64,000 bases of DNA, taken from the sequence record PZ256263.1; one strand, given 5' to 3'. Shown here piece by piece: positions 25,355 to 38,396 of this stretch (its first letter is position 1; each line of letters opens with the position of its first letter). A model generated the notes under the pieces. That model had not been told where the DNA came from. It made no database searches and saw only the letters and a list, made by a program, of their open reading frames with translations. Source of the DNA: a phage. The position numbers and the translations under genes are program-made.

Positions 25355-27145
25355 ATGTCAAAGATCATTTTGGGAGACACAGGTTGTAAGGAATGTATCT
25401 CTCATGGTCGTGATAAAACCCACAACCACATGATTCTCTTCCGTAACGAAGAGACTGGTGAGGAGTGGGGAAGTTGTAACCGTTGTGGGAATTACGAAGT
25501 GTTCGAAAAGGGCACTACACCCACTCCAAACGAGAAGAAAGAGTTATCCCCTGAAGAATTGAGAGAAGTCTTAGATGATTGCTTAGAACTTCCTCAGGGT
25601 GAACTTACTCGACGTTTAATCCCTAAAGCTGTATCAGAGCGTTTTGAGTGTCGCATCGGCCTAAGTCAAACTGATGGTCAGACTCCAGACAGCTACTTCT
25701 TTCCTCGTGAACGTGATGGGAACATTGTTGGTTACGAGGTTAAGCTGCTAGATAGTAAGAAGTTTTATTATGTTGGCAGTGTGAAAGAAGCAGATTTATT
25801 TGGTATGGCACAGGCTCAACGTGGGGATGTGTACAACAAGAAGCTGTTCATTTTTGAAGACCCGCTATCTTGTATGTCTGGTTTCCATGTCCTTACAGCT
25901 TTTACAAATGCAACAAATATTAAGCCAGCATGTGTTTCTTTACCGTTCGGTGCAGGTTCAATCTCTTCTGTGTTGTCTCGTAATCGAGACTTCGTAAATG
26001 GTTTTGAGGAGGTTGTGCTCTGCATGGACAATGACGATGCAGGTGAGATAGCTTTAACAAAAGGTCGTTCTTTATTCCCTCATGTCAAGTTTGCTCGTAT
26101 TCCTAAAGGAACTTTCCCATACAACGGTGTGGAGAAAGAGATTAAGGATGCGAATGACATGCTTCTGTCTGGTCGTGGTCAAGAGTTATTCAACATTCTC
26201 AAGTATTCAGCAAAGCGGGAATCTCCTGCTGGTGCTGTAACAATCTTTGATTGCCTTGATGATGCTCTGAAGAAAGCGGAGTGGGGTATTCCCTATCCGT
26301 GGAAGACTCTGAATGAGATGACCTTCGGTATTCGGTGGGGAGAGGTGGTAGCCATCGGTGGTGGTGTAGGGAGTGGTAAAACACTCATTGCTCACGAGCT
26401 GGTTGCTCATCTGTGCTTAGAGCATGGTTTTAATGGAGGTGGCTTCTTCTTGGAAGAGAAGGTAGGCATGTCTGTTAAGAACATTGCTGGTAAGTCAGCA
26501 TCAATTCCTTTCCACCGACCTGATGTTGAATATGATGAGGAGGATTTGCGTAATGAAGCACTTCGTTATGCAGACAAATTCTTCTTGTATGACAACTTCG
26601 GACAGAACGAATGGGAAGACATTAAACAGTGTATCCGTTTCTGGGTAGTTGAAAACCAGTGTAAGTTCATCATCCTTGATAACATTACCGCTCTGGTATC
26701 TCATTTAACACCTTCAGAGATTAACACTGAAATCAGTAAGATTGCTTCAGAGCTTGCTGGTATGTGTAAAGAATTAGACTTTACCGCTTTCGTGTTGTCT
26801 CACCTTAATGCTCCGGCAGGTGGTGCTCCTCATGAAGAAGGTGGACAGGTACGTGAAGTACAGTTCACTGGCTCTCGTTCCCTTATGCGTTGGTGTCAGT
26901 GTATCATTGGCTTTGAGCGTGACAAGCAAGCTGATGGCTTAGCTAAGAACCTCTCAGTTATTCGATTACTGAAAGAACGTAACTACGGTCAGACAGGTGT
27001 CTGTTATACTAAGTATATCAGTGAAACCGGTAGACTTGTAGAAAGGGAAGACTTTGAAGTTGATGAAGATAATCCATTCGTTTTAACTAACGGAGAGGAT
27101 GCAGCTTCTCTCGTCAACCAAGCAGATGGAGCTTCACCGTGGTAA
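25355..27145 (+). CDS. Bifunctional DNA primase-helicase (T7 gp4-like), 596 aa
   Basis: N-terminal Cys4 zinc ribbon, TOPRIM motifs ([14 protein letters not shown]), DnaB-like Walker [10 protein letters not shown] and Walker B IILD. Confidence 0.9.
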
Positions 27146-27696
27146 AGAAAAAGAAGAAAGTGTTTGCATTCGATATCGAGAGTAATGCACTGTACGATGA
27201 CATAACTAAAGTATGGTGTATTTATATCTTTGATGTTGAAACTGGTGAAAGGTGGGGCTATCGGCCTCACCAAATTGAAGATGGGATTCGTAAACTTACA
27301 GAAGCAGATGTACTAGTGGGTCATAATATTATTGACTTCGACTTACCTGCTCTGAAAAAGATGTATCCCTCTTTGATTAAATATAATTTTAACGTCTTTG
27401 ACACTTTATGTCTTAGTCGATATCTTAAACCTGACCGTATTGGTGACAGTCCTGAGTATCCGAAAGGCGACCCTAGACGTGGCCCAAGAGGTCATGGTTT
27501 GAAGCAATGGGGTGAGTTCTTAGAGGAACTTAAAGGTGACTACGGTGAGCAAGAGGAAGCATGGGATGCTTTCACTGAAGATATGTTTACTTATTGTGAA
27601 CAGGACGTTAACTTAACTGTCAAGGTTTATCTTTTCTTGTGTGAACTCACGGGATTTGACCCTTACGACCCACCTTCATTATATTGGAAAATGTAA
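27139..27696 (+). CDS. DEDD-type 3'-5' exonuclease, likely the proofreading subunit of a split family-A DNA polymerase (185 aa)
   Basis: Exo I FDIES, Exo [15 protein letters not shown], Exo III YCEQD; resembles the T7 DNAP N-terminal domain but is a separate ORF. Confidence 0.75.
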
Positions 27697-27697
27697 A

Positions 27698-36112: not shown

Positions 36113-36535
36113 ATGCCATTACCAGCTAGACATCAAAACCGTTTCCTAGTTCTCAAGTGGGATGATATCGAAATGAATCTCACTGAACACGAACTTGATT
36201 TGTTCCATGAACTACTGTCAGAGATTCGCTCTGGTATCCCTGATCGTCAGTATGTAGTTATCAGTGATAAGCACCCTCAAGAGTTTGAAGAAGCTTGGGG
36301 TATGAAGCTGGCTTATATTCAGAGAGCTATTCGAGAAAGAGAAGAAGTCGCTAACCAAAGGGTTGTGGCTCATTTAGTACGAGAGCAACCTCGTGAAGCT
36401 AGGGCTAACCATGCACCACCCCCACCCCCTCCTTGGACAGTTGTCAACGGGACAGTTAGGGCTTACAGTGATGAAGCTACCATGTTAGATGTAGTAGAAG
36501 ACAACCAAGCATTTACAGATTTACTTTACCAATAA
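36113..36535 (+). CDS. Hypothetical protein with poly-Pro tract (140 aa)
   Basis: ORF abutting the upstream gene; PPPPPPPW tract. Confidence 0.5.
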   Translation: MPLPARHQNRFLVLKWDDIEMNLTEHELDLFHELLSEIRSGIPDRQYVVISDKHPQEFEEAWGMKLAYIQRAIREREEVANQRVVAHLVREQPREARANHAPPPPPPWTVVNGTVRAYSDEATMLDVVEDNQAFTDLLYQ

Positions 36536-36551
36536 TTTAAAGGAGTATAAA

Positions 36552-38396
36552 GTGAGCAACCCGGACGCTCTCCCATTTTTGACAGAGATGACTGTCGCTG
36601 ATATAATCTCTAAGCAAGCAAAGCACGGAGTGAGTTTCAACCGAAGAAATGCTCGGTGGTATGTTCACCTCCTTAAAGAGATTATTGTTAATATTGACAA
36701 AGAACTGATTCCTCTCTTACCTAAGATGAGATTAGATGGCTCAACTTATATGAAGCCGTTTAAGAAGTCTGGAGCTTTACAGAAGTGGCCTCAAGCCTAT
36801 TGCGATAGAGTTGGCCTCAAGAGAGAAGACATTGGTGGAGCATTCACCTGTGTCGAGTACGTAGACTTTGACCCATCGAAAGATGCACGAGTTAAAGAAG
36901 CCCTTATGGATGAGGGTTTTCTTCCTCCAGAGTTTAACGTATCTAAAAAGCCTTGGAACACTTTCGAAATTAAGAAAGACATGCGAAAGTATGGAACATA
37001 CCAAGCATGGTACACCGCTTGGATGCGAGGCAATGCTAAACAGAAACAGACAGCCGAGATGGTTGACGCTGATATTAAGAAGTTCTTAGAGAAACACTTT
37101 AGGTTCAAGACTAAGAACTACATGAAGGCTTATGTGTTTGGTTTGGGATTAAACCCTAACCGACGTAACCCTGTAACATTTGACGAGATTAAGAAAGCAC
37201 TAGCTACCTCAAACAAGTGGCCTACAGCTCCTACAAACCTCGAGGAGACTCTTGAAGAAGGGTTAGGGGGTGAGCTAGGGAGTGTCGGAAGTTTGCTTAA
37301 GAGACGTGTTGTAGCGGCTCACAGGCTAGGTCTTATTAGTGGACTTATAGCAAAGGAGCGCGAAGATGGTAAACTTTCGGCAGAAGCTAACAGCTGCGCT
37401 ACGCCGACTTTTCGATTCAAACATCGTATCGTGGTTAATATTCCCTCCCGTGGTTTGTTTGGTCATGAGTGTCGCAGTTTGTTTGAGTCTGACTATAACT
37501 CAGATGATGATCACTCTCGTCCTTTCGTTATTACTAACGTTGTTCCTGATGGTTGTTATATACGAAAAGGTACTAACGTAATTTATGAAAAAGGTAAGCC
37601 GGGGAAGAAAGATAAGCCTGTAGGTGCTTACAAATATTACATACCCGCTGGTAAAGAAGTATTCTTAGGGTATGATGGTTCTGGATTAGAGTTGCGTATG
37701 CTTGCACACTACCTCATTAAAGAGTGTAGAGATATGCTTGCTGAAGCAATAGAAGAAAACAATCCAGCTAAGAAAGCTCTGGCAGAACGTGGTTTAGCTT
37801 CTGCTATTATGTATCGTGATATTCTCCTTGAAGGTGATATCCACTCTCACAACCAGAAACTTGCTGGTCTTCCTACTCGTGACAACGCTAAGACATTTAT
37901 CTACGCATTCAACTATGGTGCTGGTGATGCTAAGCTCGGTTCAATTGTAGGTGGTGGGGCTGACGAAGGTTCAGTGATGCGAGCACGTTTCTTGGCAGAG
38001 AACCCGTGTATTGCAATCCTCATTGATCGTATGACAGAGAAAGCTGCTCAAGGATACTTGATTGGTGTTGATGGTCGTAAGATTACAATGAGACGGGATG
38101 CCACTGGTAAGGTTATGGTTCATAAAGCACTTAACACCCTCCTGCAATGTGCTGGTGCTGTTGTTATGAAATATGCTATGATGTTCCTTAACAAGTGGAT
38201 TGAGAGAGATGGGGTTCGTTGTGCTAAGGTAATTGATATGCACGATGAGGGCCAGTTCTCAGTGAACCGTAATGATGTACAGAAACTCAAAGAACACACC
38301 GAGCTTTGTGTTAAGAAGGCTGGTGAGTATTTGAACATGGAATGTCCTCTGGCATCTGATTGTCAGATTGGACTTAACTGGATGCATACACACTAA
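36552..38396 (+). CDS. Family-A DNA polymerase, polymerase-domain subunit (614 aa)
   Basis: Motif A LGYDGSGLELRMLAHY, motif B RDNAKTFIYAFNYGAGDAKLG, motif C VIDMHDEGQF; no exonuclease motifs in this ORF. Confidence 0.85.
   Translation: MSNPDALPFLTEMTVADIISKQAKHGVSFNRRNARWYVHLLKEIIVNIDKELIPLLPKMRLDGSTYMKPFKKSGALQKWPQAYCDRVGLKREDIGGAFTCVEYVDFDPSKDARVKEALMDEGFLPPEFNVSKKPWNTFEIKKDMRKYGTYQAWYTAWMRGNAKQKQTAEMVDADIKKFLEKHFRFKTKNYMKAYVFGLGLNPNRRNPVTFDEIKKALATSNKWPTAPTNLEETLEEGLGGELGSVGSLLKRRVVAAHRLGLISGLIAKEREDGKLSAEANSCATPTFRFKHRIVVNIPSRGLFGHECRSLFESDYNSDDDHSRPFVITNVVPDGCYIRKGTNVIYEKGKPGKKDKPVGAYKYYIPAGKEVFLGYDGSGLELRMLAHYLIKECRDMLAEAIEENNPAKKALAERGLASAIMYRDILLEGDIHSHNQKLAGLPTRDNAKTFIYAFNYGAGDAKLGSIVGGGADEGSVMRARFLAENPCIAILIDRMTEKAAQGYLIGVDGRKITMRRDATGKVMVHKALNTLLQCAGAVVMKYAMMFLNKWIERDGVRCAKVIDMHDEGQFSVNRNDVQKLKEHTELCVKKAGEYLNMECPLASDCQIGLNWMHTH

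Follow-up and report, generated by a model that had tools for sequence, protein, structure and literature searches.

The window analysed here, a stretch of 64,000 nt (PZ256263.1) from an Escherichia coli phage of the phiEco32 group (Kuravirus), encodes a T7-type family A DNA polymerase in two separate genes on the + strand. One encodes a predicted stand-alone 3'-5' proofreading exonuclease of the DEDDy type (27139..27696; 185 aa), whose counterpart in T7 gp5 is the N-terminal domain. The other encodes the polymerase domain only, i.e., thumb, palm and fingers (36552..38396; 614 aa), and corresponds to T7 gp5 from about residue 200 to 704. Together they make up a T7-like polymerase, as complementary parts that do not overlap. 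We propose that one old gene fission cut the ancestral enzyme within the linker that joins the 3'-5' exonuclease domain to the polymerase domain, and that both products would reassemble non-covalently via the ancestral interdomain interface to give a two-subunit enzyme. To this statement as a whole we assign a probability of roughly three in four.

The arrangement as such is not new. The window system is almost certainly the known phiEco32-type split polymerase, and the split polymerase of the phiEco32 group is real, old and conserved, and is already published and annotated. Escherichia phage FS2B is 97% identical to the window, 109 related phage records, Kuravirus SU10 among them, match it, and the whole 11.3-kb region is at least 80% covered in 60 phage records. 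The split was stated for the LUZ24 group and phiEco32 in PMC3517423, where the 2008 genome report of phiEco32 is cited as having already given this arrangement. A 2023 comparison of Kuravirus genomes (PMC9965538) found it in all Kuravirus-like phages as well as in 7-11, Privateer, Vp_R1 and BUCT695. In RefSeq, the exonuclease orthologue of SU10 and phiEco32 is named 'DNA polymerase exonuclease subunit', and the polymerase orthologue carries the product name 'DNA polymerase; lacks 5'-3' and 3'-5' exonuclease domains'. In the literature searched, we found no study on the biochemistry of a phiEco32- or LUZ24-type split polymerase.

The start codon of the exonuclease ORF is a GTG within the preceding primase/helicase ORF, 7 nt from its end; about 9 nt upstream of this GTG lies a GGAG. 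It comprises Exo I (DxE; FDIES with D12 and E14), Exo II (D; HNIIDFD with D68) and Exo III (YxxxD; YCEQD with Y152 and D156) of PolA-type DEDDy exonucleases, and scores above the Pfam cut-off for DNA_pol_A_exo1 (PF01612; 2e-8, 34.7 bits, cut-off 23.6). BLASTP aligned it to residues 5-196 of T7 gp5 with 33% identity (7e-18). Among 54 stand-alone homologues, ranging down to 32% identity, the four catalytic carboxylates D12, E14, D68 and D156 are invariant (54/54), Y152 is conserved in more than 90%, and the C-terminal tail GFDxxNPP is conserved as well. With its catalytic residues kept and a dN/dS of 0.03-0.04, the 185-aa protein is predicted to be a 3'-5' exonuclease. Its sequence points to descent from a domain of a polymerase: of its best 150 representative matches, 82 outside its own clade are proteins of at least 500 aa that match with their N-terminal part. 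We also considered a stand-alone DnaQ/epsilon-like or TREX-like exonuclease and rejected this identity, since both sequence and fold are nearer to the T7 gp5 domain, which DnaQ-type and other stand-alone DEDD exonucleases do not approach as matches. In a sequence search of solved structures, T7 DNA polymerase was the sole match and neither DnaQ nor TREX appeared up to E=1. The AlphaFold2 model (pLDDT 94.3) found the T7 gp5 exonuclease domain as best fold match, its best 27 matches being all T7 gp5 (E ~1e-10), whereas TREX1/2, ExoI and diDNase followed at E ~1e-5.

The polymerase ORF also has a GTG start codon, preceded at 7 nt by AAGGAG, and matches Pfam DNA_pol_A with 5.5e-23 (82 bits, cut-off 34.3). 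Its motifs A (DGSGLELRMLAHY), B (RDNAKTFIYAFNYGAGD) and C (MHDEGQ) are much like those of T7. By sequence and predicted fold it is a T7-like family A polymerase, nearer to T7 gp5 than to Pol I/Klenow: BLASTP against T7 gp5 gave 9e-39, phmmer against solved structures gave 5e-33 for T7 DNAP vs. 3e-6 for Klenow, and Foldseek with the AlphaFold2 model (mean pLDDT 91.9, pTM 0.81) gave E ~4e-26 for T7 DNAP as best match vs. ~4e-16 for Bst/Taq. D375, R443, K447, Y451, Y455, H564, D565 and E566 are invariant in 64/64 homologues, and D375, R443, K447, Y451, D565 and E566 correspond to T7 D475, R518, K522, Y526, D654 and E655. The N-terminal positions E12, Q22 and G26 are conserved as well, and dN/dS is 0.01-0.03. 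Compared to T7 gp5, the protein has three lineage-specific insertions (about aa 135-230, 320-365 and 386-412) and a thioredoxin-binding region about 30 aa shorter. Both proteins look functional, judged by the kept catalytic residues, the strong purifying selection and the confident models.

The preliminary description of this DNA had reported both ORFs as separate parts of a T7-type polymerase, with Exo I-III in one and T7-like motifs A, B and C in the other, and all of this was found again. It had also named two observations that would speak against such a split, namely an exonuclease domain within the polymerase ORF and a better match of the smaller protein to stand-alone DnaQ-like exonucleases. 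The latter does not hold, as outlined above, and for the former Pfam gives DNA_pol_A alone within the polymerase ORF, whose AlphaFold2 model opens directly with the helices that come after the linker in T7. The alignment with T7 gp5 that it had suggested demonstrates how the halves complement each other. Joined, exonuclease and polymerase give an end-to-end alignment, collinear and free of overlap, with T7 gp5 and seven fused relatives; T7 residues 5-196 fall to the exonuclease ORF and about 200-704 to the polymerase ORF, with the break in the interdomain linker. A tblastn search with T7 gp5 against the whole window on both strands delivered two matches (aa 5-196 at 27172-27681 and aa 318-704 at 37125-38393) and no further exonuclease, polymerase or PolA fragment.

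The same alignment bears on the idea that the halves are rejoined after expression, be it by protein trans-splicing of a split intein, RNA trans-splicing or programmed frameshifting. Among phage replication genes, fractured ones and ones with split inteins are known (PMC2677866), and polymerase genes of relatives contain group I introns. However, the exonuclease ends at about T7 residue 196 and the polymerase begins at about 200, which leaves no spare length for an intein fragment, and Rfam detected no intron in the window. A split-intein or trans-spliced gene was thus rejected, there being no extra sequence at either terminus and no hit in the intron search, and the about 23 ORFs and 8.9 kb between the genes rule out frameshifting. 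Altogether, we consider any such rejoining extremely improbable.

The phylogenetic analysis fits a single old fission behind the split. All polymerases without exonuclease domain (98/98) form a single clade in a neighbour-joining tree, whose sample is biased in that these proteins came from a polymerase search and most fused ones from an exonuclease search; bootstrap support for the clade was 94/100 in a 65-taxon subsample. Five fused proteins make up its sister clade (98/100), and the deeper branches all consist of fused polymerases. For one of these five, P0182, the gene order is primase/helicase, ligase and fused polymerase. The comparison with related phages, likewise suggested in the preliminary description, showed the split in each of the relatives looked at, the distant LUZ24 and BUCT695 among them.

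The split might, as the preliminary description held, reflect an invasion of the polymerase gene by mobile elements, for example by the HNH homing endonuclease between the halves. Such a gene is indeed present there (30566-31060, + strand; Pfam HNH_3, 7e-9), and some of the group I introns in the polymerase genes of relatives carry endonuclease ORFs. However, the HNH gene occurs in 3/109 related phage records, lies 3.4 kb from the exonuclease gene between two unrelated conserved genes, and is missing from the corresponding site of SU10 and phiEco32, in which its two neighbours directly adjoin each other. It is a sporadic insertion and unconnected with the split. The split clade is monophyletic and far older than this insertion. 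Furthermore, the introns of relatives sit in motif B, away from the exonuclease/polymerase boundary, and the intervening genes belong mostly to nucleotide metabolism instead of mobile elements. We therefore regard a mobile-element origin as very unlikely. Of the preliminary description's overall interpretation, the complementary split of a T7-type polymerase stands and the link to mobile elements finds no support.

By gene order, exonuclease and polymerase genes go together. The exonuclease gene overlaps by its start with the last 7 nt of a T7 gp4-like DNA primase/helicase gene (25355..27145, + strand; Pfam DnaB_C 9.9e-11, weak Toprim_2), annotated as 'DNA primase/helicase' in SU10 and phiEco32. 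The polymerase gene follows at a distance of 8,855 bp, behind about 23 ORFs on the same strand, in fair agreement with the about 9 kb and about 20 genes given previously. By ORF list and Pfam, this block (27698..36535, + strand) comprises a nucleotidyltransferase (27698-29011), a dCTP deaminase (29021-29554), a Dps/ferritin-like protein (31053-31616), a phage-encoded thioredoxin (31866..32141; Pfam Thioredoxin 2.1e-13), ThyX (32157-32813), a stand-alone Nlig-Ia domain (33429-33758) and PhoH (33927-34664), all on the + strand, besides many small ORFs without assigned function. Its gene order is the same in SU10 and phiEco32. The succession of primase/helicase, exonuclease, gap and polymerase is common to SU10 (gap of 8.6 kb), phiEco32 (8.0 kb), BUCT695 (6.2 kb) and LUZ24 (2.3 kb), and the overlap of primase/helicase and exonuclease genes is kept in LUZ24 and BUCT695 too. 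In addition, in six metagenomic exonuclease/polymerase pairs both members report the same length for their longest contig, which suggests that they share a contig. After the proposed fission, the exonuclease gene would have kept its place right behind the primase/helicase gene, with which it overlaps, and the accumulation of other genes in between would have left the polymerase gene at a lineage-dependent distance of 2-9 kb downstream of it.

The exonuclease appears to be translationally coupled to the primase/helicase and not to the polymerase. With genes 9 kb apart instead of adjacent, matched expression of the subunits is not guaranteed. Because the exonuclease gene always directly follows and overlaps the primase/helicase gene and does not lie by the polymerase gene, one might speculate that the proofreader is recruited to the fork via the helicase, or made in amounts unlike those of the polymerase, and that fidelity could then be adjusted during infection; we consider this idea quite unlikely.

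The same gene order could be read as a sign that the 185-aa protein acts independently and unbound, e.g., by proofreading in trans, by processing ends in recombination or repair, or together with the primase/helicase, leaving a polymerase without built-in proofreading. Its gene lies far from the polymerase gene, and its linkage to the primase/helicase gene persists in distant relatives. However, the protein exactly complements the missing domain, the break falls in the linker, and both new termini, i.e., the tail of the exonuclease and the first conserved residues of the polymerase, are maintained. Furthermore, among the sampled homologues the stand-alone exonuclease accompanies the polymerase clade without exonuclease domain. 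For their stability, PolAs reportedly depend on the exonuclease domain, and the AlphaFold2 model of the independently split S-SBP1 polymerase, a pair predicted to reassemble, superposes on an intact relative (PMC10201439). Thus an independent exonuclease seems unlikely, and a two-subunit assembly remains our preferred reading. In such an enzyme, the primer 3' end would shuttle between the polymerase and exonuclease sites as in T7 gp5, and the phage thioredoxin may serve as processivity factor. By analogy with T7, thioredoxin is a possible processivity partner of the polymerase, and this idea has been put forward for Privateer, a related phage (PMC7881722). However, the idea is a weak one because of the shortened thioredoxin-binding region.

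Compared to known systems, the window holds the same one as phiEco32, with gp74 as exonuclease subunit and gp53 as polymerase, SU10, FS2B and the other Kuravirus orthologues. Gene lengths (558 and 1845 nt) are identical in phiEco32 and SU10, as is the succession of primase/helicase, exonuclease, nucleotide-metabolism block and polymerase. Towards these two phages the window shows 1-3 non-synonymous differences in the exonuclease and 7-9 in the polymerase gene, with a dS of 0.2-0.28 towards phiEco32. The remaining differences to Kuravirus phages are at strain level, namely the additional HNH gene of the window and a few differing small ORFs in between. The LUZ24 group (Bruynoghevirus; gp25 as exonuclease subunit) and Aeromonas phage BUCT695 share the exonuclease gene overlapping the preceding primase/helicase gene and a downstream polymerase without exonuclease domain of the same clade. 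In contrast to the window, their gaps are shorter and hold other genes, and the polymerase genes of LUZ24 and BUCT695 are interrupted, apparently at the same place and with an endonuclease ORF in the gap, whereas that of the window is uninterrupted. T7 gp5 has the fold and catalytic motifs of both domains, the ddNTP-discrimination tyrosine in motif B and an upstream primase/helicase gene in common with the window; however, it is a single chain of 704 aa.

Polymerase and proofreading exonuclease are separate polypeptides in one complex in E. coli Pol III (alpha/epsilon) and in archaeal PolD (DP2/DP1) as well. These complexes likely work in the same way as the window pair would, while their polymerase families are unrelated. 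For a split PolA, the analogy to PolD has been drawn before (PMC10201439), in a study of S-SBP1-like cyanophages (Czernecki et al., 2023). Their T7-like PolA is also split at the exonuclease/polymerase boundary and also has a shortened thioredoxin-binding region, and its halves were proposed to reassemble. In contrast to the old split of the window, that of S-SBP1 is recent, a 1-nt frameshift having left adjacent, overlapping ORFs (PMC10201439). S-SBP1 was called the first split in PolAs there, yet phiEco32 and LUZ24 had been noted earlier (PMC3517423).

Taken together, the split in the window matters little as a discovery, as it was previously reported, is part of RefSeq names and was restated in 2023. 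The small additions of this study are evidence that one old fission took place and that the sister group is fused, the conserved linkage of exonuclease and primase/helicase genes, and a clear separation of the split from both the HNH gene and the introns of relatives. If the unlikely idea of a helicase-recruited or unevenly produced proofreader were true, such phages could tune their fidelity in the course of infection, an option that a fused T7-type enzyme lacks.

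The family A DNA polymerase of this phage is divided between two separate ORFs, as the preliminary description had proposed. Both the exonuclease ORF (27139-27696) and the polymerase ORF (36552-38396) are present on the plus strand, with the Exo I, II and III motifs and the polymerase motifs A, B and C located where that description had placed them. The two genes lie 8,855 bp apart, with approximately 23 ORFs in between, all on the same strand. When both ORFs were joined and aligned to T7 gp5 together with seven fused relatives, they were collinear with the fused polymerases from end to end, while the junction coincided with the linker between exonuclease and polymerase domains. 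Searching the whole window with T7 gp5 (tblastn) led to two places only, namely these two ORFs. Intein-, intron- or frameshift-mediated rejoining of the halves is ruled out, since there is no spare sequence, no intron signal and 8.9 kb of intervening genes.

The exonuclease ORF encodes 185 aa from a GTG start and matches the Pfam family DNA_pol_A_exo1 above the cut-off (2e-8). A stand-alone DnaQ-type exonuclease was considered as its identity and rejected, as the protein resembles the exonuclease domain of T7 polymerase better in both sequence and fold. Residues 5-196 of T7 gp5 align with 33% identity (E = 7e-18), and T7 DNA polymerase is the only sequence match among solved structures. The 27 best fold matches of the exonuclease model (pLDDT 94.3) are all T7 gp5 (E ~1e-10), while TREX1/2, ExoI and diDNase gave weaker matches with E near 1e-5. 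Furthermore, 1.84 billion representatives were searched exhaustively, and among the 150 best matches 82 were proteins of at least 500 aa that matched through their N-terminus; these are fused polymerases.

The polymerase ORF encodes 614 aa from a GTG start behind a strong AAGGAG. It contains no exonuclease domain according to Pfam, where DNA_pol_A is the only match (5.5e-23), or to the AlphaFold2 model (pLDDT 91.9, pTM 0.81), in which the first elements are the helices situated after the linker of T7. The pairwise match to T7 gp5 spans T7 residues ~290 to 704, and the best solved-structure matches of the model are all T7 DNA polymerase. Compared to T7, alignment and confident model reveal two helical insertions (aa ~135-230 and ~386-412) and a beta-rich one (aa ~320-365), whereas the thioredoxin-binding region is approximately 30 aa longer in T7 gp5. 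The phage has a thioredoxin gene of its own (31866-32141), located between the exonuclease and polymerase genes.

Both halves are maintained as working genes, as judged from their invariant catalytic residues and low dN/dS. Across 54 stand-alone homologues of the exonuclease, with identities as low as 32%, D12, E14, D68 and D156 are invariant and Y152 is nearly so; in the polymerase, motifs A, B and C keep their catalytic residues unchanged across 64 homologues. Compared with the related phages SU10 and phiEco32, the exonuclease has a dN/dS of 0.03-0.04 and the polymerase one of 0.01-0.03.

The split is already known and annotated for this phage group. An 11.3-kb region of the window matches 109 phage records, 60 of which cover at least 80% of it, with Escherichia phage FS2B as best match (96.9%); the close match SU10 belongs to the genus Kuravirus (subfamily Gordonclarkvirinae). 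In RefSeq, the orthologues in SU10 and phiEco32 are identical in length to the genes of the window and are named 'DNA polymerase exonuclease subunit' and 'DNA polymerase', while the phiEco32 entries carry the notes 'contains 3'-5' exonuclease domain' and 'lacks 5'-3' and 3'-5' exonuclease domains'. Separate polymerase and 3'-exonuclease genes were described for all LUZ24-group phages (PMC3517423, 2012), and a passage of that article credits the same separation in phiEco32 to Savalia et al. (2008). It was later found common to all Kuravirus-like phages as well as 7-11, Privateer, Vp_R1 and BUCT695 (PMC9965538, 2023).

The preliminary description had also suggested a link of the split to mobile elements, and this part was wrong. 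Of the 109 related records, only 3 contain the HNH gene (30566-31060, plus strand), and in SU10 and phiEco32 the genes that flank its site abut; it is a sporadic insertion unrelated to the split. Mobile elements do visit the polymerase gene, yet at motif B and not at the exonuclease/polymerase boundary. Three close metagenomic relatives (L003-L005), with 81-84% nucleotide identity in the polymerase gene, share a 303-nt group I intron without an ORF (RF00028, 102 bits; L003:7365-7667). It interrupts motif B (FIYAFN|YGAGD) after nt 1364 of the window polymerase, corresponding to 37915/37916, and because of it gene callers report the polymerase as two pieces of 454 and 139 aa. The polymerase genes of LUZ24 and BUCT695 are interrupted as well, and there the gap holds an endonuclease ORF. 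An Rfam search detected no intron in the window.

Four further phages show the order of primase/helicase gene, overlapping exonuclease gene, gap and exonuclease-less polymerase gene: SU10 (gap of 8.6 kb), phiEco32 (8.0 kb), Aeromonas phage BUCT695 (6.2 kb) and Pseudomonas phage LUZ24 (2.3 kb). For six metagenomic exonuclease and polymerase clusters the longest contigs are equal in size, which suggests that the paired genes share one contig. In a neighbour-joining tree based on the polymerase domain (187 sequences, 417 columns), whose sampling is biased by the way the two lists of matches were obtained, all 98 exonuclease-less polymerases form a single clade. Its sister consists of five fused proteins, and all deeper branches are fused. 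In a 65-taxon subsample, the split clade had a bootstrap support of 94/100, and its grouping with the fused sister one of 98/100. One of the five fused proteins (P0182) is encoded on a 45-kb contig where the gene order is primase/helicase, ligase, fused polymerase. Within the limits of neighbour-joining and the biased sampling, this fits one old fission, followed by gene accumulation between the halves.

The gene block between the halves holds further features. A nucleotidyltransferase gene (27698-29011, plus strand, 437 aa) begins 2 nt downstream of the exonuclease stop codon, probably at the ATG at 27698, though the ORF list reaches upstream to 27641. Its match to the Pfam PolyA_pol head domain is weak and under the cut-off (E = 0.0023), and RefSeq describes its SU10 orthologue as a protein with the nucleotidyltransferase domain of class II CCA-adding enzymes. 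A 109-aa ORF (33429-33758, plus strand) corresponds to domain Ia alone, the NAD+-binding domain at the N-terminus of NAD+-dependent DNA ligases (Pfam Nlig-Ia, 1.6e-34), and represents a second detached domain in the same block; relatives carry it as 'DNA ligase', though it lacks adenylation and OB domains. Two sets of tandem small paralogues, both on the plus strand and without Pfam match, were found: three ORFs of 65-69 aa (29555-30170; 22-25% identity) that share W4, a TR..AR..K motif and a C-terminal Y, and two ORFs of 84-94 aa (35409-35949) with 50% identity over the last 40 aa (E = 2e-14). Elsewhere, the window carries a single tRNA-Arg gene with anticodon TCT (10998-11073, plus strand; ARAGORN and Rfam, 72 bits). 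The GC skew turns from positive to negative near 46 kb, which fits two convergent transcription units; such units are described for related phages.

The exonuclease GTG, with a GGAG approximately 9 nt upstream, lies 7 nt before the stop of the primase/helicase ORF (25355-27145). The resulting overlap measures 7 nt in the window (27139-27145), 17 nt in LUZ24 (L007:8974-8990) and 1 nt in BUCT695 (L008:15998), and suggests that translation of the proofreader is coupled, in a conserved manner, to that of the helicase and not of the polymerase. This conserved link to the primase/helicase gene, together with the distance to the polymerase gene, lends some weight to the main rival explanation, an exonuclease acting on its own, which we nevertheless consider unlikely. 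The S-SBP1-like cyanophages split their polymerase independently and recently; their halves reassemble like an intact relative in AlphaFold2 modelling, and the exonuclease domain is reported to be required for PolA stability (PMC10201439, 2023). For the phiEco32-type pair, our literature search found no biochemical study. Taken together, the halves are complementary, retain their catalytic residues, evolve under purifying selection and co-occur conservedly, and a non-covalent two-subunit polymerase, whose physical association we infer, is the best-supported reading. In such an enzyme, the exonuclease would dock on the polymerase via the ancestral interface, and proofreading would take place inside the complex.
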